From a virus: 64,000 bases of DNA. The position numbers and the translations under genes are program-made. Each line of letters opens with the position of its first letter. Position 1 is the first letter of the stretch. Below the pieces are notes generated by a model. It did not search any database, was not told the origin of the DNA, and saw only the letters and a program-made list of their open reading frames with translations. Shown here in pieces: positions 2,230 to 26,660 of the stretch. The stretch covers positions 32,001-96,000 of IMG/VR virus record IMGVR_UViG_3300019757_000164. One strand, given 5' to 3'.

Positions 2230-2307
2230 TAGTATTTCCAATAAGTCAAGTGCATAGTGTCCATATTGCCCAATTATGCATACATGATGCTCAACCGTTG
2301 ATTATTC
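2230..2307. repeat. palindromic recombination-like site 1 (core 2256-2284, spacer TGCCCAA)
   Basis: TAGTATTTCCAA-N14-AGTGTCCATAT-TGCCCAA-TTATGCATACA-N13-TTGATTATTC; overlaps the stop of ORF 2291..2710. Confidence 0.85.
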
Positions 2308-2722
2308 GTTTTAAATTATCAATCTCTTTTTCAGACTCATCTATCATTTTTATCAATTCATCGCCACTATAAATGTAGGTCGAAGTGTAGTCATCTGTAT
2401 CACAAATATTTACCATAAACCAATTTGGGAATTTTGGATTTTTATCCCATAGATGCACTGAACCAAGGTGTCTAAAATTTGAGTTTAAAAAATTCATCAT
2501 GTTTTCTTTGGAGTCAAAATAACCAATATTATATTCGTCTCCGTCATATGACACATCTTGCCATTTATATTTTTCTTGGTTGATTAAAAGATCATCTCTG
2601 CACGTAGCTAAATACTCGCTATCCCACTCAGTTCCGTCATTAGCCACATACTTGGTTATTTCTTGCTCGACTGGAACCATCTTCTTTATTGTGATTGTTC
2701 TTGTTTTCATATTTCCCTCCTT

Positions 2723-3709
2723 TTAAAATATCTCTCTAATATCCTGCATTTTACTATTTTCCTTCATTTGTAAATAGAATTTTCTAGTTGTTGATATATC
2801 AGAGTGTCCTAATATCTTAGAAGCCATTTCTAATTCAACACCTGCATCCATGAGTCTCTCTACCAATAACTTGCGAAAGCAATGTGGAATTATTTCATTA
2901 AAACCAGTCTCTTCTCTTGCATCATTTATTAGCCTTCTGATATATGCTACACTTCTAAAGTCTCCAGAAGCCTTATATCTATCGGTTGTAAATAAATATT
3001 CGCTATTTCCTCTTCTTTCTCCTGACTCCAAGTAGTCATCTATTGCTTTTTCAACATCTTTGAATAGTGTGACTATTCTTTGCTTAGAGTCACCACGACC
3101 TTTCCCCAAAACTTTTATCAAACCCTGATCTTTATACTCTAGATAATTCTTAATTTTGAATGTAGACACTTCGTTAATCCTCAAACCTTCATAAAAAATC
3201 AACATAGCAATGGCTTTGTTTTGCTTTGGCGTGCCTCTGTCTGAGTTTTGAATTGCATCGATGACCGCTTTCCCCTCTTCTTGTGAGTAATACACTTTAT
3301 GCTTTTGTTCAAATGGATAGTCTACATTTCCACTAATTGGGTTCGTATCGATATGTCCATATTTAACTAAATATTTCATAAATGAGCCAATATTAGCAAC
3401 ATATTTTCTTAATGAAGCATTCTTATATCCATTAGGTGCTCCATCATGACCCGGTGAACTTAACCAATCAACATATTGCTGTGCAACTAGACCTTTCATT
3501 GATCTTATATTCGACACTTTCATCATTTTAATTCTATTTTTAGTCATATACCAGTTGAAAAATCTATTTATAGACTTGTTTTCTTCTTTAATAGTCGTGA
3601 TTTTACATCTTTTCTTTACTTGGTTCATTTCATAGTCTAGCATTAATTCTGCTAATTGATCACTAACTCCATCAAACTTTAATAATTCCTTCAATTCTTG
3701 CTTTTTCAT
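2723..3709 (-). CDS. tyrosine recombinase/integrase (XerC/D-like)
   Basis: Catalytic residues present: GLRINE (R), GKG (K), HCFRK (HxxR), LGHSDISTT (H), FY (Y); N-terminal core-binding-like region; 328 aa. Confidence 0.93.
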   Translation of the reverse strand: MKKQELKELLKFDGVSDQLAELMLDYEMNQVKKRCKITTIKEENKSINRFFNWYMTKNRIKMMKVSNIRSMKGLVAQQYVDWLSSPGHDGAPNGYKNASLRKYVANIGSFMKYLVKYGHIDTNPISGNVDYPFEQKHKVYYSQEEGKAVIDAIQNSDRGTPKQNKAIAMLIFYEGLRINEVSTFKIKNYLEYKDQGLIKVLGKGRGDSKQRIVTLFKDVEKAIDDYLESGERRGNSEYLFTTDRYKASGDFRSVAYIRRLINDAREETGFNEIIPHCFRKLLVERLMDAGVELEMASKILGHSDISTTRKFYLQMKENSKMQDIREIF

Positions 3710-3742
3710 TGCTGTATCTCCTTTCGTATCTCTTATTAAGTT

Positions 3743-3771
3743 AATTATAACAAAAAGAAAAGAGCATTACA
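3743..3771 (-). promoter_or_regulatory. sigmaA-type promoter of the recombinase
   Basis: Minus strand TTGTAA-N17-TATAAT with TG extension, preceded by the AATAAAAAAACTTT upstream motif. Confidence 0.6.
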
Positions 3772-4463
3772 ACCCTTTTCTCAAAGTTTTTTTATTTATT
3801 TTCCCTATTTCTATTTTCCATATTCATTGCCCATCCAAACAGTATCATTGCCGGAATAAGTAGTGGGTTTATGATCCACAATAAAACCAATGAAATAGCA
3901 TACACTATAAATACCAAAGTTTCTCTTCTCATATTTATTCCTCCTTTGTAATATCTATCATTCTTTCTTCGTTGTTTAAATCAAATAATTCATTAACATA
4001 GAATTCAGACTCAAAATAATCATATCCATATCCTTCTACATCGGCAATCATTGCTCTTGCCCTAGTCTTATTTATAGCTTTTACTACCCACTGTTTATTG
4101 CTAATTAAACATTCTACGAGATAAACTTTATTCCTCATATAGCACCCTATTCCTCCAATCTGTTTAATCCATATGAATTTATAACTTTGCTACAACTTTC
4201 AAACTTTTCGATTATATTCGTGAGTTCATGCCTCAAATGATTTAGTAACTGTGATTCATTCTCATAACTATCGCATTCTGAATCCCACAAGAAAATATTA
4301 CTGCCAAAAATATGCAATCCTATGTACTGTACTGCTGTGCTATCGGTTAAATAGAAGCAGATTTCATCAGTTATTTCCCATAATTCATAATTCAATTGAT
4401 CTACAATATTTTGAATTTCCATTTTAAATCCTCCTTTTACTTTTATATATTTTCAATATCCAA

Positions 4464-4625: not shown

Positions 4626-4644
4626 TTTACCTCCTTTTACTTTT

Positions 4645-4725
4645 ATATATTCTCAAAATTTCAACCTTATCTAGTTCATAATAACCCAATATGCATACAA
4701 TACGGTGAAAGTGTTTGAATTAAAC
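4645..4725. repeat. palindromic recombination-like site 2 (core 4671-4699, spacer TAACCCA)
   Basis: ATATATTCTCAA-N14-CTAGTTCATAA-TAACCCA-ATATGCATACA-N14-TTTGAATTAAAC. Confidence 0.75.
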
Positions 4726-5116: not shown

Positions 5117-5197
5117 CTCTATTTCCAATGTATACAACTCATTGTGTGTATAATTGTATGTTATACATACATGACACTCAAACACGCATGGGTTCGT
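5117..5197. repeat. palindromic recombination-like site 3 (core 5143-5171, spacer TTGTATG)
   Basis: CTCTATTTCCAA-N14-TGTGTGTATAA-TTGTATG-TTATACATACA. Confidence 0.88.
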
Positions 5198-5746
5198 TAA
5201 TCCAATTTTCTCATCTTGTGTCTACTGATATAATTTTTCCAAGACTTGTACGTCATTTCTCCATAATATACGTAAGGAAATGTATTTCCATCATTAGCCA
5301 AAACTTCTTGTATTGTATCCTTCTTCTTGTATTCACATACTCTCTTATCAAATGCTTTTTCGTCTGACACCTGCCAAGAGATCATACTCATTTCTTCGTC
5401 AATTGAGTCTGAGTCCCACACTAAACACTCATCTACAAATGTAATAACTTTACTTCTCCATGGCTCACTTTCGCAAACATAGACTTCATCTTTATTATAT
5501 TTCATAAAACCTCCTTCTTAAAATAACTCTTCGTTTAATGATAAAACCTCGTTTGGCGATAGTAAAACGTCTCCATCTTCCTCATATGAGTCTAGCCACC
5601 GATACTTTCCGTCCGACATTTTAACTAATCTTAACGGATATCCCATACAATCATATTGAATTTTATTAGTTCTTTCAACTACTGTTGGGTCTTGTTTTTT
5701 CATCTTAAACAGATTAAAAATATTCATTTTACCTCCTTTTGTTAAT

Positions 5747-5800
5747 TAGTGTTTTCAATATATAATTCAATCCTATGCATAAATGACGATATAGCGTCTA
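5747..5800. repeat. internally deleted site 4 (spacer TTCAATC)
   Basis: Outer arm TAGTGTTTTCAA joined directly to TATATAA-TTCAATC-CTATGCATAAA; the N14 linker is missing. Confidence 0.65.
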
Positions 5801-6484
5801 TTTTTCTTTAACTCTCCAATATATACAAATGCAATTATCTACCGTAGTATCTCTAGTTTCGTATTCATATTCACCATCTTCGTTTTTAAACGGGGAGTAG
5901 TATCCATTGATTAATATATCATGCCACTTAGACATCTTTTCGTCACTTGATATACATTCATGGAATTCATCTATTGTATCACCATAATATATTCCATAAT
6001 CTCCACTTGTCATTCCAATTTCTACTGAATATTTGTACATATCCTTAACAGTATTTACTAATATTCTTTTTAGATCGTGGCTATAATTGAATCTTTTAGA
6101 GTTGTATTCAATACTTCTTCCAATATTTCCATCGTCATGTCTTTCGCTTGCACATATCCAATCAACCAGCATTTCGGTTACATCAACTAACCCCATACCT
6201 TTAATGCCGTTCTTGTGATATTCTGGATGATGTCTGTTTTCTAAGTAGTGATGCTTAAGTGCAATATTCATTTCTTTTAAATATCCTTTATATTCTTCAC
6301 TACCATATGTACAGTCTTTGAGCTTTGGTGTAAACTCATCAAATGCTTCTTTTTCTGGTGAATATAATTTGCTTTGATCATGTGTTGCGAACCTTTTACT
6401 TAATTCTTTTATTATTTTACTTCCTTTTTCTATAACGTTTTTAATGTGTTCTATTGTATCTTTTGAGCTCTCGTAATTATCCAT
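5798..6484 (-). CDS. DUF5662-like HD-type phage protein
   Basis: HDQSK...HHYLENRHHPEYH...EMLVDW motif pattern. Confidence 0.75.
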   Translation of the reverse strand: MDNYESSKDTIEHIKNVIEKGSKIIKELSKRFATHDQSKLYSPEKEAFDEFTPKLKDCTYGSEEYKGYLKEMNIALKHHYLENRHHPEYHKNGIKGMGLVDVTEMLVDWICASERHDDGNIGRSIEYNSKRFNYSHDLKRILVNTVKDMYKYSVEIGMTSGDYGIYYGDTIDEFHECISSDEKMSKWHDILINGYYSPFKNEDGEYEYETRDTTVDNCICIYWRVKEK

Positions 6485-7325: not shown

Positions 7326-7397
7326 GTGTATTACCAACATTTTAACTCTACTCTGTTTATAATTCAGTATTATACATTAATAGCGATCAAACGGCTA
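7326..7397. repeat. palindromic recombination-like site 5 (core 7352-7380, spacer TTCAGTA)
   Basis: GTGTATTACCAA-N14-TCTGTTTATAA-TTCAGTA-TTATACATTAA; stop of ORF 7395..8360 lies 15 nt beyond the core. Confidence 0.82.
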
Positions 7398-8360
7398 TTC
7401 TTCGTCAAACTCATCGTATCTACACTTTCTATAGTTGGCTAATTTTATATTTATATAACTACCATCAACCCAATCTTGCTGATCATTGTATATAGAAAAC
7501 CACGGCTGGTCTTGTATGTGCATTCCATCGAATAGTTTTCCTTGACAAATATCTGAACACATCATATTCAACCCTTTACCCTTAATAAAAGTTTTTAACT
7601 CATCTATTACATATTGATCAAGCCAATATATTGTAAAAGAAGTGTAATCATGGTTTGCCACTAAGTGCATTTTAGAATAGTCTAAATTATATTCTTTATG
7701 ATACTCAAACATTTCTCCGTTAATCCAGTAGCTTCCATTCACCACAATATGTACATCGTTTTCATCGAATGTTCTAATTATATCACTCAACATTTCTTCG
7801 CTATTTAAAAACCAATGCCATCTATCGTCATTTACGTATTCATCATACCACTCCCAATATCTATCATCATTATATCTATTTTCATAATCATATAACTTGC
7901 TATCACAAGTGCCTATCTTTAACCTGTCAGAGTGTTTCCAGTTTCTTTGTTTGTATTTGATCTTTTGACTGCCAAAATATCTCTTACCTTTTGGATTGGT
8001 TTTAGGAGTACATAGTGAGCAACTACAGAAGTTCTTTCCTTTATTTAAAGACTGTAGGGGTTTGTCATGTAAGTGCATATATCCATGTTTTCTTTTATAG
8101 ATGGCTTTAGACCAATTCTTCTTTCTTCTCTTGGCTCTAGTCATATCTTTTGAATAATCAACAACTTCATATCTGTCTCTATAGTTATCAAACCCGCTCA
8201 ATAGATAGTCCCACTCATTGTATTCTAAAGCCATTTCATAATAAGCTTCTTCTCCTCCATTATCAGGAACAATCAAACCAGTACCAAAATCAAATGGCTC
8301 ATTTTGTAGTTCTCTGTATATCTCTATTTCTTTTCTAGTGCATCCTTCATATATATACAA
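7395..8360 (-). CDS. hypothetical phage protein (321 aa), sole gene between sites 5 and 6
   Basis: Long ORF with a CSCSLC motif; no family recognised. Confidence 0.7.
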   Translation of the reverse strand: MYIYEGCTRKEIEIYRELQNEPFDFGTGLIVPDNGGEEAYYEMALEYNEWDYLLSGFDNYRDRYEVVDYSKDMTRAKRRKKNWSKAIYKRKHGYMHLHDKPLQSLNKGKNFCSCSLCTPKTNPKGKRYFGSQKIKYKQRNWKHSDRLKIGTCDSKLYDYENRYNDDRYWEWYDEYVNDDRWHWFLNSEEMLSDIIRTFDENDVHIVVNGSYWINGEMFEYHKEYNLDYSKMHLVANHDYTSFTIYWLDQYVIDELKTFIKGKGLNMMCSDICQGKLFDGMHIQDQPWFSIYNDQQDWVDGSYINIKLANYRKCRYDEFDEE

Positions 8361-8390
8361 AATTTCACCTCTTTTCTTGTTTTTACTTTA

Positions 8391-8462
8391 TACTGTTTCC
8401 AACGCTTATACGTCATTGTGCGCATAATCACCTATTACACACACATTAGCTTAAAACGGCTA
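8391..8462. repeat. palindromic recombination-like site 6 (core 8417-8445, spacer TCACCTA)
   Basis: TACTGTTTCCAA-N14-TGTGCGCATAA-TCACCTA-TTACACACACA; the left arm matches the E. coli dif XerC arm GGTGCGCATAA at 10/11. Confidence 0.88.
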
Positions 8463-10879
8463 TTTCTCAACATTGTCGTACCAACCTCCTATTATTAAAA
8501 AAAATTTAAGAAGGCTCAATCTTATATAATATATTGGCTTTAGATCGTATTTATATGTGCTAATAACCATCTTTGATCCTGAGTGAGTATTCGTTGTTTT
8601 TTGTGACACCATGCTTTCAATTGGCAATAGCATTTTAGAAAAGCATATGCCTAAATTTTTCTCATTATCACTATACTTTTGTATAAAGACTCCTTTTTTT
8701 ATTTTAATCACGTTGTACCTCCTCAATCTCATCCGCTTCCATATACCAATAGTAAGGATTATCAAATTCACACTCCCCACTTAGATCATTTTCACAGTAC
8801 TCACCATTTCGATCATTTTTAATTTCTGCTACTTCACAAATATCTGAATATCTAAACATTTCAGTTTCTTCGTAAATGTCATCGTCTTCGTATTTCCTAC
8901 ACTCTTGGCACTTTTTATATTTTGAATACTCTTCATCATATGGTTTGTTCTTTTCTGCTATGTATGACTTGGCACTTTCCTCATCTTTCACAAATCCAAT
9001 CAACGTAGATCTAGTGTCATACATATATCCATCTTCTTCATAAATTAAAAATACTTTCATTATACCTCCTTTATAATCTAAATAATTTCTTGACCAACTT
9101 CTGAGCCCTATTTAATCTCTTCTCTGGCAGATTCATTGTTGTAGTCTTCAATCCTATTCCATCTTAAACAATTCTCCATTCTTCCACCATATGATGCATA
9201 GGTAAACACTAACATACATGGAAACTCGTCGTCATCTGGTCTTATTCTTATTTTACCAAAGTAATCTTTTGGATGTGGCAACGCAAGCTCTTCGTAAATC
9301 TCATCAACGTCATAAGGCTCTATACAATCGGTCTCAAAATAAGTATGCCAAGACTCATAATCATCTCTAAAATAGCATTCTTCTGTTCCTACCATTCCAC
9401 TAACATTCATGTACCAATTGTCATGAACTAGCCTTTTTCCAAATAGTGATTTGACCAATATATCGTATTCATGTTGATTATTAGCTTGTGCCCATGATGT
9501 CATTGTCCATCTTTGGTCTAATTTCCAATTGTTTACATCGTATTTCATTTTAATCCTCCTTACCTATAGTTTAGGCTTGTTTTCTTCAGTAAGAATATCA
9601 CCGAATAATTCCTTCATTACTCTAACATTATAACATCTATCTTTTTCATTGTTTTTATGAAAATATGTTTGCTTCTTGATATTCTTATATGCTTTACTGG
9701 TATTACTTGCTTGATTTAATACTAACAATAATGGATTAAGCTCCTCCATTTCATCTTTGTAAGATCTTCTCTCTCTAAGAATTTCTTTTCTCATTATTGT
9801 AAGTTTGCACATCTGAGATGCGTTAAAGTCATATATCTCAGTTACATGATTTAGATCGAGTTCTTTCTTTCTAATAACTTCAATCTTATGTTTTAAGTAC
9901 GTGCATCTCTCTTGAATCTGATTTCTTTTATTTATCAGCTCATCCATTATCTCAACAGCATTTAATTTTTCCATCATAACCTCCTCAAGTTATATTTCCC
10001 TTATCTGTTAATTAAATTATACCATAACCAAAACCAATGTCAACACCTTTTTAAATAAAAATATAAAAATACCCAGAAAATCTGGGTTGGTCTAAGCATA
10101 TTATTAAATTAAATGTTTTTAGAGTTTATAGTACTATCGACTTTGGCTATACGACTCATCTAGCTAGTGGCTCAGTTTAATATTTTTATTTCCACGCTAG
10201 TGACAAGTCAACCTATTTGTTTCACCTTCTTATTTATATTTAACTAACCCAACCGTGTGTGGTGATCAGCCACGATTATTACAGACAAACTACATATTAT
10301 CTTCTAATTATTTTATTATTTACATCCTATGTTGGGTAGTTATTGATAAATTAAATGAACATATGTACAATCCAAGCCTCTAACCATAATACTGGTGGAA
10401 ATAAGACTTGATACATTGCCTTTTTGTCTTTTTCTTCTTCCGTTTTATCGTCGTCGTCAATTCTAAATCCTACACATGATTTCAAGAACAACCCAATACC
10501 TAATACATGAGCCATATTAATTTCTGGCATACCAATCGTAACCATAAACCAGATTGATTAATTGAATTCATACGATTCCTCCATTTCATTTTCAAATAAT
10601 TTTTCGTTAACTATACTTATGCCTCCATTCTTAAAATATACTTAAATTCTGACGGATGTTCATTTATTTTTTCTGACACTTCATGGATAAATTTGGATTC
10701 AGAATAGTCAATATTTTCACCTTGAACCCAGTTGTCATAATTTGATGTACAATCATTGCACATCTGCCAATCTTTTTCATCTACTTTATAAGTACAGTTG
10801 CTACAGTCAATGACTGATAAGATTTTTTCTTGTTTTTCTTTAATATTCATAAGCTCCTCCTTTTCTAATTTTAACTTTG

Positions 10880-10960
10880 TGCTATTACCAACGGTTTAAC
10901 GATAATGTGTGTATATTCTATTATTACACATACAATGCCATCAAACACTGTAACTTCCGT
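10880..10960. repeat. palindromic recombination-like site 7 (core 10906-10934, spacer TCTATTA)
   Basis: TGCTATTACCAA-N14-TGTGTGTATAT-TCTATTA-TTACACATACA. Confidence 0.87.
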
Positions 10961-11960: not shown

Positions 11961-12041
11961 CACTATTTCCAACACTTACGGTACTATGTATGCATAATTG
12001 TAAATTATACACACAATAGACTCAAAGCGTTGATTACTTCT
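11961..12041. repeat. palindromic recombination-like site 8 (core 11987-12015, spacer TTGTAAA)
   Basis: CACTATTTCCAA-N14-TGTATGCATAA-TTGTAAA-TTATACACACA-N14-TTGATTAC. Confidence 0.9.
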
Positions 12042-12636: not shown

Positions 12637-12666
12637 ATATTCCTCCTTTTATTGATTTTGAGTTTA

Positions 12667-12744
12667 TAGTATTTCAAACCCTTACATCCCAATGTATGCA
12701 TATGACATAATTATGCATACATTTAGGTCAAATGGTGATTTTTA
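12667..12744. repeat. palindromic recombination-like site 9 (core 12693-12721, spacer GACATAA)
   Basis: TAGTATTTCAAA-N14-TGTATGCATAT-GACATAA-TTATGCATACA. Confidence 0.9.
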
Positions 12745-13142
12745 ATCTACGAATCTAACGTCGGCTGGGTACAAAGTATTGATTTCTCCATTATCAATCT
12801 CTACTATAGCAACTGACACCGCAAACCCATTTTCAAGATCTCCCGAGTCTTCCAATCCCCACTGATGGAACGTGGCTTTCACATACTTATCCTTGTAATG
12901 TGAATTAACACCCGTTTCTTTGTTGTATGGTACATATTCTCTAATGTTGACTTCTACTGCTCTCATTTTAAATCCTCCTTATTCAACCTCTTCGATTTCT
13001 ACGGTTCTGGCAAATTCCACCACATCTGTAAACAGCGCATTTAGATTCCCTTCAATATCATCCAAATATTCCTCATTAACATCCTCAAAAGTGATTACGT
13101 ATTTCTTTTCCATTTCTTCCTCCTTTCGTCAATTTAACTATA

Positions 13143-13207
13143 TATTATTTCTAACACTTTAACAGTCATGTAATCATAATTACCTCTTATGCACACAGTA
13201 GCCTCTA
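13143..13207. repeat. palindromic recombination-like site 10 (core 13169-13197, spacer TTACCTC)
   Basis: TATTATTTCTAA-N14-TGTAATCATAA-TTACCTC-TTATGCACACA. Confidence 0.85.
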
Positions 13208-15441: not shown

Positions 15442-15522
15442 TTAAATTCCCAATGGTTTCATCCTATTTAATGCATAAGGATATATTATAGTTACATTAG
15501 GTTCAAAGTATTGCAACTACAT
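15442..15522. repeat. palindromic recombination-like site 11 (core 15468-15496, spacer GGATATA)
   Basis: TTAAATTCCCAA-N14-TTAATGCATAA-GGATATA-TTATAGTTACA-N14-TTGCAACTACA. Confidence 0.85.
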
Positions 15523-17181: not shown

Positions 17182-17262
17182 TAGTAATACCAACACCTTA
17201 TCTCTAGTGTGTGCATATTTATTAGTTATCAACACAATCACCTCTAACCCTTGCAAATGCTA
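17182..17262. repeat. palindromic recombination-like site 12 (core 17208-17236, spacer TTATTAG)
   Basis: TAGTAATACCAA-N14-TGTGTGCATAT-TTATTAG-TTATCAACACA-N14-TTGCAAATGCTA; both outer arms present. Confidence 0.9.
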
Positions 17263-17340
17263 GATGGTGATATTTCTTAGGTAGTGCCCTCTAATGAGAA
17301 CAAGTTTACTAAGCTAGCCCCGCAGTCCCTACGGTTAATA
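17230..17340 (-). ncRNA. putative TnpB omegaRNA (reRNA) 3' scaffold
   Basis: Overlaps the tnpB 3' end: ACCGTAGGGACTGCGGGGCTAGCTTAGTAAACTT...CTAAGAA, then a terminal hairpin ATCACC-A-TCTAGC...GTTAGA-GGTGAT (17237-17271); position is as expected for IS200/IS605 omegaRNAs; boundaries approximate. Confidence 0.55.
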
Positions 17341-18412
17341 TATTCATACTTGCGTTTAGGTCACGGTCTATAGATAGACCACATTCTTCGCAATTATAAA
17401 CCCTTTCATTTAATGTTAATTTTTCTTTTACGTTTCCACACTTACTACAGGTTTTAGATGATGGATACCACCTATCAATTATAACTAACTCTTTCTCATA
17501 CCACAAACACTTGTACTCAAGTTGTCTTCTGAACTCTCCAAAGCTTGCATCACTTATAGATTTTGCCAAACAGTGGTTCTTTTTCATGCCATCTGCGTTC
17601 AAGTCTTCTATAACAATTGCATCATAATTATTTACTAAGTAATCAGTCACTGAATGTATATATGAAAACCTACAATTAGCAATCTTTTCATGAATTCTAG
17701 CAACTTTTACACGTTGTTTCTCTCTGTTTTTTGAGCCTTTTTTCATTTTAGAGAATTTACGCTGTGCTTTAGATAATTTTTCTTCGTATTTTCTATAATA
17801 TTTTGGATTTTCAAATATAACTCCATCACTCAAAGTGGCAAATTCTTTTATTCCTAAATCTACGCCAACCTTTTTATTAGTCTTAGGCTTGGGTTTCACC
17901 TCGACCTCACAACACAGGTTGGCAAAATATTTACCACTTCTTGTCTTGACGACTGTTACATTATTTATTTTCATGTTATTAGAAAACACAAATGATTGTC
18001 TAAACTTTACATATCCCATTTTAGGCAACTGAACTCTATTATTGTTGAATTTTACTGATCTGCCACTCACCCTATAAGACCACTTTGCTCTGTGTTTTGA
18101 TTTAAACTTCGGAAATCCTCGACTGTGCTTGAAAAAGTTTTTATAAGCAATATCTAAGTCCTTCAGTGCATTTTGACATACAGCAGAATCTATGTCGTAC
18201 AACCAATTATTTTCTTTCTTGAAGTCAACCAACTCAGATGAGTCTCTGTAATAATTACTGTTCTGACCATAGTATTCATATTCTTTGATTCTTATATCTA
18301 GGAAATTATTAAATACAAATCGGCTTGCTCCAATTGATCTATTTATATTCAATTCTTGTGTCTTATTTGGGTATATTCTTAATTTATAAGTTTTGTTTAC
18401 TATGCATACCAC
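17309..18412 (-). CDS. tnpB: RNA-guided endonuclease TnpB (IS200/IS605 family), no TnpA in the window
   Basis: N-terminal YKLRIYPN HTH; RuvC-I GVDLG, RuvC-II IEDL, zinc finger CSKC..CEEC, RuvC-III DRDLNAS; catalytic D-E-D intact. Confidence 0.95.
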   Translation of the reverse strand: MVCIVNKTYKLRIYPNKTQELNINRSIGASRFVFNNFLDIRIKEYEYYGQNSNYYRDSSELVDFKKENNWLYDIDSAVCQNALKDLDIAYKNFFKHSRGFPKFKSKHRAKWSYRVSGRSVKFNNNRVQLPKMGYVKFRQSFVFSNNMKINNVTVVKTRSGKYFANLCCEVEVKPKPKTNKKVGVDLGIKEFATLSDGVIFENPKYYRKYEEKLSKAQRKFSKMKKGSKNREKQRVKVARIHEKIANCRFSYIHSVTDYLVNNYDAIVIEDLNADGMKKNHCLAKSISDASFGEFRRQLEYKCLWYEKELVIIDRWYPSSKTCSKCGNVKEKLTLNERVYNCEECGLSIDRDLNASMNILTVGTAGLA

Positions 18413-18420
18413 CTCCTTTG

Positions 18421-18480
18421 TGTTATTTCATTTCACATTGTAATCATAATGTTCTATTATACATACAATAGCTTAAACTA
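18421..18480. repeat. palindromic recombination-like site 13 (core 18439-18467, spacer TGTTCTA)
   Basis: TGTAATCATAA-TGTTCTA-TTATACATACA, immediately upstream of the tnpB RBS; outer arm degenerate. Confidence 0.8.
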
Positions 18481-18815
18481 TTCACCACCGTTATATAAGA
18501 AACATTCTTGATCTTTAAAAGATTCTAGCATATTGCAAAACGCATCTAGTAACTTTGTAGTATAGCTAGATATTAAATTGTCTGCACAGCACAGTTCTTC
18601 AACTTCATCTATTCCAGCAGTTAAAGTCCCCCATATGACACTACATTCTTCCTCATCGACATTAAATCCTTGACCTCCATTTGACCTAAGTAACTGTGTC
18701 TCAGATAGAAGCTCAGACTTTAGCTCTCCTAAACTCCATCCTTCTTGATTCCTAATAAAATTTACGATCACATCAATTGTATCATTGTTCATTTTTACAT
18801 CCATAAATATCCTCC

Positions 18816-18887
18816 TTTCCTATTTTAGCCATTTATAGGCATTTTTTGATAATCACTAATTATCGTTACAATTACTGTGTATTTTTA
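18816..18887. repeat. degenerate site 14 (core 18842-18870, spacer TCACTAA)
   Basis: TTTTTTGATAA-TCACTAA-TTATCGTTACA between a stop (18885) and an RBS (about 18811). Confidence 0.6.
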
Positions 18888-19945
18888 AAAATTATTCTTC
18901 CAATATTTAGAGATCATCCACATTATTACGTAGAAATGATATTTATTATTTACGCCAAAAGTAAAATGTGTTTTAGATTCATTATAAGATTTGAATACTC
19001 TTTCATCTTTGAATCCATACAAGAAATTCGGCACAGCCTCAATATCAAATAAATCTTTGAAATCTAGTACTATTGGTAATTTACTCTCTACAGATACATA
19101 ATACCCATAAAAGTTATTTCCAATTGTTAGAACTAGATCATCTTTCCCATCAGCATAGATTCTATACACTGGAAGATTAATGGATTTTGAACGATGGTTT
19201 CCATCAACAACACAAACTTTTCTAAATACATTTTTATATCTTTCATAATCTTCATACAAGTCACAGTTAATATTGTAGAACAAGCCTTTTGCGATATCAT
19301 CTCTAATGTAGCACACTTGATTAGAAAACGCATCTTTGTAATGCATAGTATCGTTTACATCATTAAGCCTAACCCACGTTGTTACATCTAGGATTATATT
19401 ATTTTTCTCATAATATTCTAAGAAATCTGATGTGTTCTTATTTTCCCAATATTCTTTTTTATACTCTGGATTGTAAAACTCCATATCTTTTAATTCTGCA
19501 TAGCTTATTTTATTCATAATTCCTCCTTAACCATCAAAACCCAATTACAAAATCCCACGTTGAAATGATATCGTCTAACTCGCACTTTGTAATACATTCT
19601 TCTAAAATTCTTCCAGCTTTATCAACAGCTGTCATTTCATCATGAATTAACAAAATGGTCTTCCCGTGATGATAAATTGTACCACATGGCATCTTCTTTT
19701 TTAACAACTCAATAAATTCATTGAATGGTTCATATTCTCTTACAAGTGGTTTGATGTTATTATACCCACTTAAAACACCCTTTGCATCTAGGTCACACAC
19801 CCAGTCAGACTCTTTGTCAAATGTTAGTAATGCTGGTGTTCCGTTGTATGTATCAAGTACCAATAAGTCGCCTTCATGCACTCCACCTTTATTTATCGTA
19901 TCCTTGCATCTAAATTGTACCTCATATAGTTTCATAAAGCCTCCT

Positions 19946-20025
19946 TTCAATTTTCAACGTTTATCCACACTGTATGTATAATAAAGTATTATACATTAAT
20001 GGTGCTTAAAGCGTTGCGATTACTT
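19946..20025. repeat. palindromic recombination-like site 15 (core 19971-19999, spacer TAAAGTA)
   Basis: TTCAATTTTCAA-N13-TGTATGTATAA-TAAAGTA-TTATACATTAA-N14-TTGCGATTAC. Confidence 0.87.
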
Positions 20026-20700
20026 GTTTAATATTTTTCTACACTCTTCATTTGCTTGATCGATTTTTTGCTGTGTTAAAATCTTATATGGAACCTCTTT
20101 ACTATCTTCGTCTAATTTTAAGAACCACAAGAATCTATCCGACCAATCTGCTTCTACAAATTCTCCATCTGATTCTAGTGTATATAATTTCGTGAACAGT
20201 CCTTCTCTAACATCTATGTCAAAATAATAAACTTGTGTCTCTTGATTATACCCATGAGAACACCTTACGCCGTTAAATGCTTCGTATCCATTTAATTCAG
20301 TTTTGTAGTGTCCATACAGTGATCCGGAATTAATACTTGTCATATTTGAATAACTTTGACTCCAAATAACCAAATTCTTTTCTGGATGATAATATAGTAT
20401 AACTTCTTCAGTTGATCCTTCATATTTGTTATATTCGTATACTTCTGAGTATCCTTCTTTGAATCCATGGATTTCTAGTAATGACTTAAACTGATTCCAG
20501 TCCATACCCCAATGTGTATCGCCTGTTTCTTTTAGTGCGTATCTTTTTCTTTCGTTCATCATAATTTGAAGACCAATTGATTTCATGTTTTCGTCATGAT
20601 CAAATTCAGACCAATGTTTATTTGAAATTTTCTCAACCTCATGAATAACATCTGTGTTCAATATATCTAATACTTGTTTATTTTTCATATCAATTCTCCT

Positions 20701-20734
20701 TTCATTAATTGCGGTCAAAGTGTTGGAAATACTA
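20701..20734. repeat. right half-site of the palindromic repeat
   Basis: CATTAA-N14-TTGGAAATACTA (exact reverse complement of the consensus outer arm); left half absent. Confidence 0.75.
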
Positions 20735-22779
20735 CATTACTTACTTTCCCACATCAGATGCTCACACCAATTATATTCATCTTCTTTTCCACCAACTGAC
20801 CAACTTGGATATGTATACATATCACTGAAACATTCATTTTTGTTTGTGATCAATACCTCTTTGTTATATGAGCTGATTTTTATAAGTGCATCTTCAATGA
20901 TAATCCTGTCTGACAGTCTACATATAAAATTCATAAATTCCTTAAATGTTTCTTCAAATTCTCTGTCACGTAATGAGCCGTCTACAACTAGTATATACTG
21001 GTCTTGAGTTCTCAACCATCCACCTCTTCTATTGTTGTTGCCATACCAATCTAATAGGTTGTCTGTTCTCCATCCATACTCATCGAATGATGAACTACTA
21101 TTGAATCCATCCTTCTGTATTACATATTTACTCATGTCTTTCTCACTTCCAGTAACTAGAGGTAAGTGATTTAACACAGTATCTAAGATATATCTTTTTT
21201 CAGCCTGTGTTCTGCCCATTGGCGATAATGTTATTGTTCCGTTTACATAAGTCCAAGCACTCATTTCAATTCTCCTTTCATAGTTAACTTTCTATCTAAG
21301 ACAAGTATATACTAAAATAGAGCCAATGTAAAGCCCTATTTAAAAGTTTTTTATTTAATTATATTAATTGTCATTTTTCATAACTTCTCTCCAAGTATCT
21401 CTATTTGAAAAGTATTCTTTTAAGAATTCCATGAATTCTTCTTTGTCAATTTTATCTCCATATCCTTCTACAAAATCTTCGATATCTTCAAAGAACATAG
21501 TCTCATAACTTTGCTGTTGAGCACTATTGATTTCAGATATATACACATTTTTATCATATGTGCTCTTACTTAGTTTACCATTTGTACACTCATATGCAAT
21601 GCTTGAAATTGTGTCGTGACAATTGTATAAGAAGAACGCAAGCATTAATTGTTGCTCATCTTTATCATATACCCCATAAAATTCTTCCATGTGCTCAATT
21701 TGATCGCTCAGATACTCTTTCATATCCTCTTTTGATTCTAAAAACTTATCAATTCCTTTTTTATACACGGCTTACTCCTTTCGCATACTCGCAGTATTCA
21801 TCCCATGTCATATCTAAATATTCATTAATAGGTAGACATGAATCAGATTTATGCCATTCTTCAATTTTCTTTTCGATTTCTTCATCTCTGCTGTTCAATA
21901 CTTCATTTTTATATTTTTCTAGTAAAAAACCGTTTGAAAAAGTATTCATATTTCCTCCTTTGTTTTGTATAGATTTACTTGCATAAAATTATATCCAATT
22001 TTACCATCTTGTCTTGGGCAAAGATTCTTTTTTCTAAAGTTGAAATGAATAAAATTAGTTGTAGCATCATCTATATCATGGTAATATGGACACCCTCTTG
22101 AATATATACAGAATGATAAATCACATCTAAATCTATCTTCTATATTATCAGACATCATATCTTGATAGTTTTTAGTTTCTTTCGTATAGTATTTTGGTTT
22201 AAACATATTGCCTCCATTTTTTTTATTTCAACAATCCCTCGTATCTAATCATTTAGCCCTACTTAATACAATATTAATTTAAATAACTTTGATCCTTCAA
22301 TATGTTTACTTGCCACATTTCTAATGCAATCCATTTCGATCCATCTTGTGATATAAGAATTGATTCCTCATCTTCAAACAAATGACAATCATTATCTCCA
22401 TCAATCCAAATTCCTTTTCCCTTAGAAATTGCAAATTCTACATTGTGTAGATCAATAAACTCAACAACCTCAGATGGTGTTTCATTATCTTTGTTTAAAT
22501 AACTCTCTAATTCCTCATAAGTAATAACTAAATATTTCATATAAACCTCCTTATATAATTCATTCACAATTTTCATGCCAAACTACTTGTCCACTCATAT
22601 GTGTAAAATATTCCTCTTCAGAGCCATCTTTGATCTCTTTTTGGCATCTATCACCTAGGAAAACGAATGTTTTAGTCAATACAATTTCTCCAGTTTTGTA
22701 TTCGTAGCAGTCATAAGATATGTGGTGATATATCCATTCTTTTATTTTAGAAATAAATTTAACCATATAATTCCTCCTT

Positions 22780-22851
22780 TCCAATTTTCAACGTTTCGTC
22801 TTATTGTGTGCATATTGAGGTAATCTACACACAATGACTTCAAGATGTCTA
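22780..22851. repeat. palindromic recombination-like site 16 (core 22805-22833, spacer TGAGGTA)
   Basis: TCCAATTTTCAA-N13-TGTGTGCATAT-TGAGGTA-ATCTACACACA. Confidence 0.85.
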
Positions 22852-23668
22852 TTTTACATAGTTCTTATATCTGTCATCTTCATCATTAAAACACACAAAC
22901 GCCATGCCACAAAGATCACCGAGTGGACACACATCGCAATCTCCATCTTTCATTTCTTCACAAGCTTTATTTAATATATCTAGTGCTTCTTTGATATTAT
23001 CTCTATTCATTTAACCCTCCTTTTCTTGTTTAAAGAACCTATTATGTACATCTTACCACTTATTACAAAACTCTTCTTTCTTGAAAACTAATAGCACTTC
23101 TTGTTTTTTAACTCCAATCAATTTAATATCTTTTAATTTATTGTTTGAGTAATTTGATATCGTATTGCTTGCCTCAAGAGCACTAGTTCTACCGCTTTGT
23201 ACTATTACAAATACATATTTACCAATATATTCTTTTCTACAATAATAATATAAGCTCATGTCCAAACAAGTTGCGTTATTTAATTCTTTAATAAAACTAT
23301 TGTATGAATCATCATCACCTAAAACTAATGTATAGAAGTGTGATAATTGTGGATTTCTTAGATATTTATTGCTTATCCTTAAATTTAAATACTTTAATCC
23401 TTCTATTTTCATTTATTCCTCCTTTCAAACCAGCTCCTGAGTTTTTACATTAACTAATACTTCTTCAAACATATCAATATGAAAATTGATTAAGTTTAAA
23501 TTTACACTATCTCCGGTTTTTAAATCTTTAAAATCCGCAAAAATATAAACAATTATACGACCCGTATTTAAATTTTTAAAACCCGGTCTGATGTCATTAT
23601 AAATATCTTCTGATTCAATTAATTCTGCTATTCTATTTAACACGTCTCTTAATTTCATAATTGCCTCC

Positions 23669-24661: not shown

Positions 24662-24685
24662 AATTACCTCCTTTACTATATAATA

Positions 24686-25870
24686 TCACTTATATGCACT
24701 ACTGTCAATACCTAATCTAACTTGAGTGTCTTTGCGTCTTTTGTCTCTTAAAAACTTATATTCTTCGAGATATTCAAAAAAGTCGTTCTCTGTATTTATT
24801 GTATCCGGTAGATCATACTCTATTAGTTGCTTGTTGTAATTTTTAAAAAATATCTTTTCGGCAATTAAGCGTATTTCTAATGCATCTACAAATTCTGAGT
24901 ACTGTCCCAAGTATATCGTTTTCCCGTCTTTTTTTATTCTAGATCTATACACCGTACTCCCCTTGCTTTTATGCACCGATACGCCTGGGTGCCCGCTAGA
25001 ATTATTAGATTGAATTCTTTTGTTCATTCCATTTTGCGAAGGGGTCACCTCTCTTAAATTACATCTCCTATTGTCGGATTTATCTCCATTAATGTGATCT
25101 ACATAATTACCTCCTTCTGTGGTCAATATTATTTTGTGCAATCTAAGATTCTTCACATTGCCATCAACTCTTCTAGTAGTGTGCAAATAACCATCGTCAC
25201 CCAAAACCCAAGTAAACCCTTTTGCTTTTACATAATCTACTTTATCTATGAAAAAAGTATCGGCGTTACTTGTGTATCCCATTATAAAATCACCTTTCTC
25301 CTCATACCTGTTACCTTTTATTTCAAATAGCCCTGTTCGGCACCCACACGTCTTTATATGACCATTTTTTATCTCTGTAAGCCTAATATCTTTTTCTTTC
25401 CCACAGTCACATATACATTTTGCTACTGTACACCTGTTGTCTATATCTTTATAAACGTCTAATATTTTAAGTGCGCCATACTTGTTACCTATTTCTTCGG
25501 ATGCCTTCTTTAAATATATATCTCTGTTTTTATCGGTTCTGATCTCATTTGTCCTATACTCATTATGCCAATCACTCAAGTTGCTCGATCTTTTTTTAAT
25601 ATTTTCTGGGTCTAGTCCTGCACACCTAAGTGAGCAATATTTAGTAAAACCAAGTGTTAAGTTTTTAAAGGTTTTATCTTTCCCACAAATTTTACACCTT
25701 CCGTCATCTTTGTGGTTGATAAATTCTATATAGTATTCTTTTTTCGAAATATATGGATGAGATTTTGTAATATGTAAGGACAAGCCTTGTATCTTAGTAA
25801 ATGATTTCCCGCATATTTTACATACATATGTTACTTTGTTATCCATTCTGGCTCCTTTCTTTTCTTCCAA
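24686..25870 (-). CDS. HNH homing endonuclease with C2H2 zinc finger and AP2-like C-terminal domain
   Basis: CKICGKSF..LSLHITKSH; VDHINGDKSDNRRCNL...QNGMN; SGHPGV...YRSRI...YLGQY. Confidence 0.9.
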   Translation of the reverse strand: MEEKKGARMDNKVTYVCKICGKSFTKIQGLSLHITKSHPYISKKEYYIEFINHKDDGRCKICGKDKTFKNLTLGFTKYCSLRCAGLDPENIKKRSSNLSDWHNEYRTNEIRTDKNRDIYLKKASEEIGNKYGALKILDVYKDIDNRCTVAKCICDCGKEKDIRLTEIKNGHIKTCGCRTGLFEIKGNRYEEKGDFIMGYTSNADTFFIDKVDYVKAKGFTWVLGDDGYLHTTRRVDGNVKNLRLHKIILTTEGGNYVDHINGDKSDNRRCNLREVTPSQNGMNKRIQSNNSSGHPGVSVHKSKGSTVYRSRIKKDGKTIYLGQYSEFVDALEIRLIAEKIFFKNYNKQLIEYDLPDTINTENDFFEYLEEYKFLRDKRRKDTQVRLGIDSSAYK

Positions 25871-26295
25871 TTAAATAAATCTCTCTTATCATTGTTGTAA
25901 TACCTTCTATACGCCTCCACTGCACATTCTGATTTATACTCATCTGGCATAGCCTGTGCGTGTTTTGTTAATCCTCTAGCTGGTAAATCTGGCAATTGCA
26001 TATCAATTAATAATTCTCCAGATTTATGTTGTTTGCCATATCTATATGTATACTCATCGTATAAAGCCATAGCATGATTATATAGCCATATCCAATTATC
26101 TAATGAATACCTAGCCCATACTGTACAAGGATGGTTCTTGTGAGCTAATCTATATGTAGCTAAATGCTCTTGATCTGTATAGTAATATGCGGACTGAAGT
26201 ATTTGTACTTCTTCCAGTAGCTGTTTGACCACGTGCTTATCTACATGATATTCAGCACATTTTTTAAAATCATAGTCTAAAATAAATATATTCAT
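25831..26295 (-). CDS. pyrimidine-dimer DNA glycosylase (T4 endonuclease V-like family)
   Basis: MNIFILD...CAEYHVDKHVVK...HKNHPCTVW...EYTYRYGKQHKS...QAMPDEYK...AYRRYY family signature. Confidence 0.85.
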   Translation of the reverse strand: MNIFILDYDFKKCAEYHVDKHVVKQLLEEVQILQSAYYYTDQEHLATYRLAHKNHPCTVWARYSLDNWIWLYNHAMALYDEYTYRYGKQHKSGELLIDMQLPDLPARGLTKHAQAMPDEYKSECAVEAYRRYYNNDKRDLFNWKKRKEPEWITK

Positions 26296-26580
26296 AATTC
26301 CTCCTAGTTGATATAAGTTATTAACTAACTACATATTACACGAAAAAAGATGGCTTGTCAACCATCTAATTATTATTATCTTCATTAAATTGTAACATTG
26401 TGTAAATAAACATAACTAATGATGCTATAATAAGAATTGATGATCCTACTTTTGGAATCGAGCCACGAATATGAAAAACTTTTACTCCACACTCAGCCAA
26501 TGTTAATGTGATTAAGCACAAAATAATGTATTTTCTCCAGTTTTCTCTTACATTTTTATTAATCTTCATTTAATCCTCCT

Positions 26581-26660
26581 TTTTATTTTCAACGTTTCAA
26601 CTTATTTAATGCATAACCTTCAATTATGTATACGATGCGTTTAAGGTGTTTAAACTACTA
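26581..26660. repeat. palindromic recombination-like site 17 (core 26606-26634, spacer CCTTCAA)
   Basis: TTTTATTTTCAA-N13-TTAATGCATAA-CCTTCAA-TTATGTATACG-N14-TTTAAACTACTA. Confidence 0.85.

Follow-up and report, generated by a model that had tools for sequence, protein, structure and literature searches.

A dif-like palindrome repeated at gene junctions in the early region of an SPbeta-related provirus: a possible array of recombinase-binding sites

The window analysed here is a stretch of 64,000 nucleotides (positions 32,001 to 96,000 of IMG/VR record IMGVR_UViG_3300019757_000164) from a 124,854-bp (124.9 kb) provirus that is distantly related to Bacillus phage SPbeta. The genome is laid out as in SPbeta: the early genes share one strand, while YonO and the late genes occupy the opposite one. 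A palindrome with a dif-like core recurs between its early genes, and the gene for a tyrosine recombinase, P0001, lies among the copies. All 17 positions listed in the first-pass annotation carry the element and are recovered by a profile trained on them. Searching the whole 124,854-bp genome with this profile gives 21 full copies, four of them outside the training set, plus one half-site. The features are listed below in window coordinates unless stated otherwise.

2230..2310, minus strand: element copy, centre 2270, after the stop of the 139-aa ORF (E 1.9e-11)
2291..2710, minus strand: 139-aa ORF immediately downstream of P0001, no secure family (from sequence)
2723..3709, minus strand: P0001, Xer-like tyrosine recombinase, 328 aa (Pfam PF00589 at 3.6e-19)
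3744..3782, minus strand: terminator-like hairpin overlapping a sigma-A-type promoter, directly upstream of P0001 (from sequence)
4645..4725, minus strand: element copy, centre 4685 (E 4.7e-9)
5117..5197, minus strand: element copy, centre 5157 (E 3.5e-11)
5745..5825, minus strand: degenerate copy, centre 5785, diverged left arm (E 0.0018)
7326..7406, minus strand: element copy, centre 7366 (E 1.2e-9)
8391..8471, minus strand: element copy, centre 8431, dif arm match 10/11 (E 1.9e-13)
10880..10960, minus strand: element copy, centre 10920 (E 3.1e-12)
11961..12041, minus strand: element copy, centre 12001, joined to the 34339 copy in a contig of run X15 (E 2e-12)
12667..12747, minus strand: element copy, centre 12707 (E 2.9e-12)
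13143..13223, minus strand: element copy, centre 13183 (E 1.2e-9)
15442..15522, minus strand: copy, centre 15482, short 3' flank with the ribosome-binding site immediately next (E 2.7e-10)
17182..17262, minus strand: copy, centre 17222, downstream of a transposase gene (E 4.1e-9)
18413..18493, minus strand: truncated copy, centre 18453, inner arms kept, flank on the transposase-start side absent (E 5.9e-6)
18816..18896, minus strand: degenerate copy, centre 18856 (E 0.0061)
19945..20025, minus strand: copy, centre 19985, where an X15 contig match ends at 19980 (E 2.5e-9)
20703..20733, minus strand: half-site with outer arm and TTTGA box, no core, abutting the ribosome-binding site of 20020..20718 (profile)
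22779..22859, minus strand: element copy, centre 22819 (E 1.2e-10)
26580..26660, minus strand: element copy, centre 26620 (E 5.5e-9)
34299..34379, minus strand: additional copy, centre 34339 (E 5.9e-11, profile match 34300-34365)
genome 6465-6531, minus strand: additional copy left of the window (E 4.3e-9)
genome 25870-25935, minus strand: additional copy left of the window (E 8e-13)
genome 28310-28371, minus strand: additional copy left of the window (E 1.9e-7)

The array occupies only 6.4-66.4 kb of the genome, the leftward early region, and every copy has the gene-strand orientation: the minus-strand profile score exceeds the plus-strand score in 21/21, which bears out the shared polarity claimed earlier. 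The sites crowd the region of small genes (17 in 24 kb), and their density does not track transcript length. The earlier description of them as separating accessory genes does not hold throughout, as a 19.4-kb block with replication genes forms a single interval bracketed by sites. In 18 of the 21 copies the stop codon of the preceding gene ends 13-48 nt from the site centre on its 5' side, and in 19 the following gene starts 50-93 nt from the centre on the 3' side, with a strong Shine-Dalgarno sequence ahead of its start codon. Placement at gene junctions is thereby confirmed, as are the single-gene intervals at 4720, 7395, 12034, 17309, 18478 and 20020. The 34339 copy, the most upstream in the leftward early region, has no gene start within 200 nt. 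With up to three mismatches allowed, the core pattern has 11 matches in the window and none in 100 shuffles. The profile scan of related phages proposed in the first-pass annotation added the four copies in the phage's own genome but gave no match below E 8.5 in SPBc2. No match at E<0.01 was found in 133 other loci, the core pattern is absent from every other IMG/VR contig, and the provirus sequence was found in none of the RNA runs.

The core consists of two inverted 11-bp arms around 7 bp, and most copies align without indels from offset -25 to +37. The 14-nt inner arms are the best conserved part, symmetric boxes at ±21-25 and ±28-31 are less so, and a conserved flank at offsets +26 to +50 extends to the ribosome-binding site. 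Of the geometry described earlier, the 11-7-11 core stands, while the ‘outer arm’ is present with less symmetry than claimed. Among the 17 listed copies, those at 5747 (E 0.0018) and 18816 (E 0.0061) are weak, and the one at 18421 lacks the flank nearest the next gene. The 7-bp centres differ in all 21 copies, for which chance expectation suffices (P = 0.56). Measured against one arm of E. coli dif (sequence from the MG1655 record), the 42 site arms match at a median of 7/11 positions. The best match, 10/11, is the one reported previously and comes from the copy with centre 8431 (right arm); we take the dif arm in question to be the XerC-side arm. Layout and arm likeness thus agree with the tyrosine-recombinase core site recognized at first. 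Since both arms resemble the same dif arm, a homodimer would be implied rather than XerC plus XerD. Watson-Crick pairs between the arms number 189/294, compared with 191.7 ± 5.1 in column shuffles (206 and 209.3 with G-U pairs included), and positions in the 14-bp arms where both sides depart from the consensus almost never pair. Without co-variation, each half-site appears to fit the consensus independently, as expected of a dimeric DNA binder, which argues for a double-stranded site for a protein dimer instead of an RNA or attC-like fold; the initial judgement that the sites are not attC-like agrees with this.

P0001 has all seven catalytic residues (R177, E180, K203/K209, H276, R279, H302 and Y312), and they are invariant in 5/5 members of its family (35-100% identity), so the tyrosine recombinase proposed at the array is upheld. 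It is the only PF00589 match in the whole genome, where no second recombinase domain and no HTH_3 (Cro/CI-type) domain were found. The nearest solved structures are XerA, XerC-like, XerD and XerH; MrpR ranks 31 among the structural matches at 11% identity, and no sequence similarity to YopR/MrpR is detectable. The P0001 promoter reads TTGTAA, 17 nt, TATAAT, with TG one base upstream (extended -10). With its own extended -10 promoter behind a terminator-like hairpin, P0001 would be insulated from the early operon, as expected of a lysogen-expressed gene.

Contrary to the earlier statement that nothing of the kind was described in SPbeta-like phages, the available parts of PMC10516654 and bioRxiv 10.1101/2025.11.27.690993 report a master repressor of SPbeta and phi3T with a tyrosine-recombinase fold, MrpR (YopR, SroF), that binds a repeated element, SPBRE, at about ten early promoters. 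Given this precedent, regulation is no less likely a role than shuffling. The two systems share a repeated element at many intergenic places in the early region of a large YonO-encoding phage. They are not homologous, however, as the element profile is silent in SPBc2 and P0001 lacks YopR similarity. In the text available from these sources, MrpR retains three of the seven catalytic residues (PMC10516654) whereas P0001 retains every one, and SroF is a monomer on an asymmetric 26-bp box (bioRxiv 10.1101/2025.11.27.690993) in contrast to the 11-7-11 palindrome within an element of about 80 bp here. The SPBRE copies that we extracted carry a near-consensus promoter (TAGACA, 17 nt, TATAAT), and this element contains none.

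The inverted 11-bp arms, their inner ends (...CATAA / TTATG...) and the presence of an Xer-family recombinase are shared with Xer/dif. Unlike E. coli dif, which has a 6-bp centre, these sites have 7 bp, and their two arms resemble one and the same dif arm; additional symmetric boxes on the outside lengthen each site to about 80 bp, and the recombinase is encoded by the phage and not the host. The alternating C/D-D/C orientation of pdif sites has no counterpart in this array. As in the pdif arrays of Acinetobacter plasmids, many sites lie between small gene modules (available parts of PMC6449649 and PMC7399989). Integron attC sites are similar in being imperfect palindromes after gene stops, with one polarity and an adjacent tyrosine recombinase gene. 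What is conserved in attC is the folded single-strand structure, not the sequence, whereas here the sequence is conserved and the pairing shows no co-variation. Stoperators of cluster A mycobacteriophages sit in small gaps between genes, all oriented the same way with respect to transcription. In L5 and TipsytheTRex they amount to some two dozen genome-spread sites, a number like that found here, and the bound repressor also stops transcription elongation, according to the accessible text of PMC9283540; those sites are 13 bp, asymmetric and bound by a monomeric two-domain helix-turn-helix repressor, while ours are long palindromes with a recombinase as candidate binder. PeSLs of T4-type phages, as far as the accessible text of PMC2839356 describes them, are likewise conserved motifs repeated within a variable region, placed between small genes of mostly unknown function, and recombination between copies shuffles modules and yields mini-circles. 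They differ in having a strong sigma-70 promoter and a terminator stem-loop, neither of which is seen here, and in recombining by homology, whereas this array contains a dedicated recombinase.

That the elements are true recombination sites of an active P0001, with the intervening genes as modules to be excised, exchanged or captured in a dif-module or integron-like manner, is a serious alternative that we nevertheless consider unlikely. The invariant catalytic residues, the dif-like core and the six single-gene intervals would fit it, the half-site at 20703 and the truncated site at 18453 can be read as rearrangement scars, and the recombinase module is mosaic, as window 3631-3802 (172 bp) is 89% identical in metagenome locus L128 with flanks that are unrelated or 30-59% identical (aa). 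In one environmental contig, from run X15, window 12017 is fused in register to 34356, so that two different sites meet where their identical 14-nt arms end; exact runs common to any two sites are at most 16 nt long, which excludes 31-mer assembly as the source of this join. A second X15 contig matches the window to 19980, the inner end of an arm, and then switches to a different site half. However, the site-to-site join comes from one contig in 1/4 runs, and the joined sites (12001 and 34339) are the most similar of all 210 pairs (30/33), the pair that homology-driven recombination or an amplification chimera would also favour. Contig loose ends fall in sites in 2 of the 24 listed (of 90), against about 1.3 expected, none of the five listed joints is at a site, and the recurrent break points at 9070, 10071 and ~15005 are all elsewhere. 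Neither a module in a second context nor a circle junction was seen among the contigs. The chance-level diversity of centres, the bracketing of essential replication genes and the restriction of the core pattern to this contig within IMG/VR also speak against it. The integron- or pdif-like system first proposed thus retains its core layout, its Xer-like recombinase and one in-register join, but the break points listed fall at sites about as often as by chance. If it were correct, the differing centres would confine productive exchange mostly to the same site on two genomes; co-infecting relatives would then cross over at set gene boundaries, or replicated genomes would be circularised or resolved.

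It is fairly improbable, in our estimate, that the elements are PeSL-like regulatory cassettes recognised by the transcription or translation apparatus or by some other factor (a MarR-like protein, the sigma-A-like factor of the phage itself or a protein of the host), with P0001 unrelated to them, for example as an enzyme of dimer resolution or integration whose only site lies elsewhere. Rearrangement would then be ordinary homologous recombination between repeats, in keeping with the similarity of the joined pair and with PeSLs that border small genes in variable regions and recombine mutually (PMC2839356, in the text available). The flank reaching the ribosome-binding site at a near-fixed distance to the start codon, -10-like hexamers in both arms, and genes for a 279-aa sigma-A-like factor and the MarR-like protein also agree with cassettes. 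Yet the aligned copies have no position-consistent -35/-10 pair, promoter-like matches in the region are not enriched (121 against 115 ± 11.7 expected), the sites have no terminator-like T run, and the consensus promoters of this phage are canonical and away from the sites (10043-10016 and 3772-3744). A promoter would not need symmetric conservation of both arms, and dif-like arms with a 7-bp centre point to an Xer-type binder. It is very improbable that the palindrome works as a folded structure of RNA or single-stranded DNA, such as an attenuator, an attC-like recombination site or a processing hairpin of the RNase III type: the position is intercistronic, on the transcribed strand, a 14-bp hairpin could form and T7 RNase III sites are a precedent, but pairing is no better than in shuffles, doubly non-consensus positions almost never pair, and Rfam has no match in window 1-36000. 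We give hardly any credence to promoters for a YonO-like single-subunit RNA polymerase, since the sites are confined to the early region, which has the opposite orientation, even though a YonO homologue (46328..48958, 48% identical to SPbeta YonO) is present.

Our preferred reading, held tentatively and at a little below even confidence, is that the sites form an array bound by the recombinase, with control of early transcription as its main role and recombination still possible. The 21 elements are predicted to be bound, as double-stranded DNA, by a dimer of a phage protein, most likely P0001; its identity as the binder, silencing as the effect of binding and the secondary place of recombination are our inferences. 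The tight packing between stop codon and ribosome-binding site, the confinement to the leftward early region and the uniform orientation count in favor of this regulatory array. The dif-like core in a genome with a sole Xer-like recombinase and no HTH_3 domain suggests the same binder, and MrpR/SroF, from the same phage supergroup, offers a published precedent. Counting against it, P0001 is distant from YopR/MrpR in sequence and structural rank, SroF is a monomer on an asymmetric box where this site is a palindrome, the element lacks the promoter of SPBRE, and site density follows small genes and not transcript length. Retention of all seven catalytic residues in P0001 and four relatives speaks for selection on catalysis, not on binding alone, and the MarR-like protein (28943..29512) is an alternative binder. 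Under the regulatory reading, a P0001 dimer would occupy the gaps between a stop codon and the next ribosome-binding site, and its presence at many such places between cistrons would keep the early operons of the lysogen blocked or silent. Because the active site of P0001 is complete, cleavage and exchange at these elements probably remain possible, and the elements would then act as occasional crossover points. The array would thus be a functional counterpart of SPBRE with MrpR/SroF and of the stoperators of cluster A mycobacteriophages.

The dif-like imperfect palindrome found between early genes is present at all 17 positions where the first-pass annotation had listed it. A profile built from these 17 copies (named here by position or by centre) and run over the whole genome recovered every one of them, plus four further full copies outside the training set and one half-site. 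These features are given below with a transposase gene that lies among the copies.

Genome 6465, minus strand: further full copy (profile E-values of the four, 2e-7 to 8e-13)
Genome 25870, minus strand: further full copy
Genome 28310, minus strand: further full copy
Window 34300, minus strand: further full copy
Window 20703-20733, minus strand: half-site, profile match
Window 17309..18412, minus strand: IS605-type transposase, 367 aa, TnpB-like (phrog_506, E 1.4e-134)

The 21 copies span 6.4-66.4 kb of the genome, occupy many intergenic regions and all lie on the early-gene strand. The minus-strand score exceeds the plus-strand score in every copy (21/21), in agreement with the single polarity originally claimed, and the proposed core geometry of 11 + 7 + 11 holds with a fixed register in all 21. 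Read along the gene strand, a weak AATCAACG box, TTTGA, four bases and a 14-nt arm lie 5' of five free central bases, and the inverted 14-nt arm, TYAAA, GTTGGAAATA, an A-rich stretch and a Shine-Dalgarno sequence lie 3' of them. Three copies, at 5747, 18421 and 18816, are degenerate or truncated. With up to three mismatches allowed, the core pattern has 11 matches in the window and none in 100 shuffles. The 7-bp centres differ in all 21 copies, which would occur by chance with P = 0.56, so that their distinctness is no evidence for selection. The half-site is a lone outer arm with a TTTGA box, directly 5' of a ribosome-binding site and without an adjacent core, and it mirrors the usual 3' flank more symmetrically than most left flanks do; its sequence suggests that a deletion took away the remainder of a site and left this scar. 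Profile searches of Bacillus phage SPbeta (SPBc2; no match below E 8.5) and of the other loci examined found nothing, a scan of IMG/VR with the core pattern gave 0 matches, and a palindrome-family finder located the element only in this genome, with SPBc2 and Enterocloster phage CB457P2 lacking it. A self-BLAST repeat finder is insensitive to the element, which it missed even in its own genome.

The record that carries these copies (124,854 bp, 31% G+C) is classed by IMG/VR as a provirus and rated 96% complete. A gene is truncated at its left end, and the integration module may thus be located beyond the record; tRNA genes and convincing end repeats were looked for in it, and neither was found. 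The phage is a distant relative of SPbeta. Matches to SPBc2 at E < 1e-5 were obtained for only 10 of 547 ORFs (at least 40 aa), including a YonO homologue (48% identity, window 46328..48958), DNA polymerase, a RecJ-like exonuclease and dUTPase. In the phage collection the nearest YonO homologue has 51.5% identity, and a near-identity DNA search of the same collection returned no matching record. Early and replication genes occupy the minus strand from roughly 1 to 66 kb, with YonO and the structural genes on the opposite strand; SPbeta likewise keeps its early and replication genes together on one strand. The sequence is present in 16 runs labelled microbial-mat metagenome, and no RNA run is among those listed for the stretch. 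Left of the window, a 279-aa close homologue of the primary sigma factor (G000:C1:6846-7685, minus strand; L140:991-1830) covers regions 1.2 to 4.2, with Sigma70_r2 at E 1e-26, and an element copy directly follows the gene. By our reading against sigma-A, a short Cys-rich insertion immediately precedes its recognition helix in region 4.2. Two adjacent plus-strand ORFs (window 31367-32038 and 32240-33466) share 37% identity over 73 aa, the former with a GIY-YIG nuclease domain (E 1e-4).

The copies are closely fitted to gene boundaries. The upstream stop codon ends 13-48 nt 5' of the site centre in 18 of the 21, and in 19 the next gene starts 50-93 nt 3' of the centre, behind AGGAGG-type ribosome-binding sites. 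The copy at 18453 has an ATG 41 nt from its centre (sequence read by eye), and the most upstream copy, at 34339, has no nearby gene. Intervals between centres range from 403 nt to 19.4 kb. A 24-kb region of small genes holds 17 copies, and most of ten such genes scanned, the transposase gene among them, have no family or no known function; replication genes fall within the 19.4-kb interval, so the sites are not restricted to accessory genes. The transposase gene stands alone between two copies, of which the upstream one (18453) lacks the gene-proximal flank. A 367-aa ORF at 41267..42370 was ruled out as a second transposase copy for want of DNA similarity, and the genome has no second copy. 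A perfect TTGACA-16-TATAAT promoter with TG follows directly after a terminator-like hairpin (window 10016-10087, minus strand), in a 370-nt gap without an element copy.

To compare a double-stranded site with a folded strand, the 21 copies were anchored on their centres, mirror positions were compared, and right-arm letters were redistributed among copies. The 14-nt arms form 189 of 294 possible Watson-Crick pairs against a shuffle mean of 191.7 ± 5.1, and the observed count was reached in 1474 of 2000 shuffles. Where both arm partners are off consensus, the pair is almost never restored. The element is thus symmetric because each half fits a consensus half-site, a pattern characteristic of double-stranded DNA bound by a dimeric protein. 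Pairing no better than shuffled speaks against an RNA hairpin, a terminator or an attC-like folded strand, and an Rfam search of window 1-36000 gave no match. Integron attC sites conserve a folded structure with variable sequence, in contrast to the conserved sequence and shuffle-level pairing of this element, so the annotation was right to set it apart from attC. Roles of the sites at the RNA level or as YonO promoters retain only a small remainder of probability; the account of YonO in SPbeta on which we draw gives it one start, for the late operon (PMC5467207).

For comparison with dif, the reference site was read from the E. coli MG1655 record, and both of its arms were set against all 42 arms of the 21 sites. 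One dif arm matches with a median of 7/11 (at least 7 in 28 of the 42, at least 8 in 14), and the second at 5-6 only. The 10/11 match reported earlier was reproduced in the right arm of the copy at 8431, the best of the 42. In the phage site, left and right arms alike resemble one and the same dif arm, which fits a homodimeric recombinase. With its 11-7-11 core the element conforms to the Xer/dif-type layout, in which inverted arms of about 11 bp flank a centre of 6-8 bp; the centre is 7 bp here and 6 bp in dif. In contrast to pdif/dif modules, which have distinct XerC and XerD arms and alternate in orientation, the phage sites show same-arm likeness and one polarity.

The candidate binder is P0001, a 328-aa Xer-like tyrosine recombinase encoded inside the array (window 2723..3709, minus strand; Pfam Phage_integrase, 3.6e-19) and the sole PF00589 match in the whole genome. 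Its best solved relatives are XerA, an archaeal XerC-like protein, XerD and XerH by sequence, and XerA, Tn1549 Int, IntI, XerH and Cre by predicted fold (pLDDT 82); MrpR (8a0a), the SPbeta repressor also called YopR, ranks only 31st among the fold matches, with 11% identity. Searches of the genome and P0001 with SPbeta YopR (tblastn and phmmer) gave no significant similarity, nor did YopP with P0001, and YomM matched P0001 weakly (32% over 118 aa, E 3e-6). The active-site Arg, Glu, Lys, His-x-x-Arg, His and Tyr are visible in the XerA alignment, and R177, E180, K203/K209, H276, R279, H302 and Y312 show no variation across the five family members (35-100% identity) found among 5.8 billion proteins. 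P0001 itself is carried exactly by 12 contigs. Like the recombinases of Xer/dif systems, P0001, the presumed cognate enzyme, has a complete catalytic set. That the arms are dif-like and that P0001 is Xer-like, unique in the genome and encoded within the array together make it probable that protein and sites form a pair.

The P0001 gene has its own promoter (TTGTAA-17-TATAAT, with TG one base upstream of the -10). The promoter coincides in part with a terminator-like hairpin, an arrangement that insulates P0001 from the early operon. A 172-bp patch with this terminator, the promoter and the first 26 recombinase codons (window 3631-3802) is 89% identical to positions 641-812 of the metagenome locus L128, while the remainder of the L128 recombinase is 30-59% identical and the genes upstream in that locus are unrelated; the recombinase module is a mosaic in its own right. 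L128 is the nearer P0001 locus (39% identity); it is 1.6 kb long and contains no site. Searches of viral, genome and metagenome collections with P0001, its family alignment and two single-gene 'cassette' proteins returned nothing or remote Xer-like matches only, and no informative relatives were found for a 139-aa ORF. The gut-clostridial Enterocloster phage CB457P2 has the genome layout of our phage and a match to the YonO query (27% over 39% of the query). A gene annotated as hypothetical inside its early region (77620-78438) is P0001-like, with 23% identity over 91% of P0001, and the palindrome-family finder detected no comparable site array in that record. A MarR-type winged helix (E 6e-6) occurs in a 189-aa protein (window 28943-29512, minus strand) in the mixed-orientation region between early and late genes, and this protein is an alternative candidate regulator. 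Neither an HTH_3 domain nor a serine recombinase domain was detected anywhere in the record.

The first reading knew of no description of this system in SPbeta-like phages and missed a parallel in published work on the repeated element SPBRE and its repressor MrpR/SroF (PMC10516654; 10.1101/2025.11.27.690993). SPBRE was predicted as a repressor site in 1999, and binding by MrpR was demonstrated in 2023 with ChAP-seq, EMSA and reporter fusions; MrpR is described as a master repressor of tyrosine-recombinase fold, with 3/7 catalytic residues left and no recombination activity on att sites (PMC10516654). Under the name SroF, a 2025 preprint describes its binding as a monomer to a 26-bp asymmetric box with many genomic sites (10.1101/2025.11.27.690993). 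The SPBRE copies that we extracted upstream of 9/10 MrpR-bound genes have a common motif of about 30 nt (TAGACA, 17 nt, TATAAT), which by its sequence amounts to a promoter close to consensus that contains the operator; the motif may be given more exactly in Figure 6C and the supplementary site lists of PMC10516654 than in this extraction of our own. Like SPBRE, the window element is repeated across many intergenic regions of the early region, yet it is a palindrome of about 80 bp with no sequence relationship to SPBRE. SPBRE overlaps a sigma-A promoter that the repressor shuts off, whereas no -35/-10 pair recurs at a consistent position in the window element; the region holds about as many promoter-like matches as expected (121 versus 115 ± 11.7), and the clear consensus promoters of the phage lie away from sites (10043-10016 and 3772-3744). 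MrpR has lost the recombinase active site, whereas R, E, K, H, R, H and Y are all retained in P0001. In cluster A mycobacteriophages, the stoperators, repressor sites located within operons, can silence the prophage (PMC9283540). They are 13-bp asymmetric sites of a monomeric helix-turn-helix repressor, in contrast to the palindrome found here in a genome in which no HTH_3 domain was detected. Like the window element, stoperators occupy many intergenic positions in one orientation relative to transcription.

Evidence on recombination came from contigs of four metagenome runs compared with window 7000-26900. These are mostly near-identical, low-depth fragments, and contig depth tables and uncovered parts were set aside as evidence. 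None of five listed contig joints falls at a site; four, with a shorter side of just 20-21 letters, were set aside, and the fifth is a 146-bp indel (10069/10216), the sequence being missing from one contig of run X15. Two loose ends lie inside sites among the 24 listed of 90, compared with about 1.3 expected (sites make up 5.3% of the stretch). One X15 contig matches the window to 12017 and continues with 30 letters equal to window 34356-34385. This junction joins copies 12001 and 34339 exactly in register at the end of an identical 14-nt arm, with the crossover somewhere within 12004-12017, and has the form expected from a 22.3-kb deletion between two directly repeated sites. A 31-mer assembly cannot have made the join, since the longest exact run common to any two sites is 16 nt. 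These two copies are the most similar of the 210 site pairs (30/33), so homologous recombination or a whole-genome-amplification chimera would favour them too. A second X15 contig matches to 19980, the inner end of an arm, and then carries more than 255 nt that form a different site half followed by different downstream sequence (compared by eye), which we interpret as a natural mosaic boundary at a site centre. At 9070 and 10071, contigs from runs X13 and X15 part from the window sequence.

Our leading reading, held somewhat short of an even chance, is that the copies form an array of binding sites, most likely for P0001, whose main job would be control of early transcription, with residual recombination. 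It is favoured by precedent in this phage group, by the lack of a Cro/CI-type repressor domain in the genome, by the insulated promoter of P0001, and by sites packed tightly between stop codon and ribosome-binding site in the early region only. A true module-exchange system, which we regard as rather unlikely, would account for the fully conserved active site of P0001, the dif-like core, the in-register 12017/34356 junction, the mosaic boundary at 19980, and the half-site and truncated site, but the break points that recur in more than one run (9070, 10071 and about 15005) all lie away from sites. Regulation and recombination are compatible, not mutually exclusive. More doubtful still is a regulatory cassette read by another factor than P0001, its copies recombining by homology in the manner described for the PeSLs of T4-type phages (PMC2839356). 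Such recombination would be favoured by the likeness of copies 12001 and 34339, but a PeSL combines a strong sigma-70 promoter with a terminator stem-loop, whereas promoter-like sites are unpositioned relative to this element and no terminator was called at the sites.

These functional statements on the element and P0001 are drawn from one genome. A repeated element across a phage early region, tied to a recombinase-fold protein, is already known in kind; new is that an 80-bp palindrome with a dif-like core occurs in 21 copies together with an Xer-type protein whose active site is intact, and a limited literature search found no prior description of such a variant. To our knowledge, no phages other than the SPbeta-like group employ a protein of recombinase fold as their master repressor. 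The phage described here, distantly related to them, encodes an intact Xer-type recombinase and also carries, across its genome, an array of sites resembling recombination cores. It is conceivable, if improbable, that an active Xer-type P0001 and about 21 dif-like sites of differing centres provide programmed gene-boundary crossovers as well as silencing of the early region. This would be a phage-borne 'dif-module' system, driving module exchange between co-infecting relatives or genome rescue/circularisation, in which the same protein-site contacts serve crossover and silencing; such a system would be an extant intermediate linking a functional recombinase to the MrpR/SroF repressors of SPbeta, which are catalytically dead. 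If P0001 binds the sites, they would be, within the literature searched, the first dif-module-type array on a phage with its own recombinase, and would allow a direct test of whether repression evolved from site-specific recombination and whether one protein can serve a phage both to silence its early genes and to set the points of module exchange.
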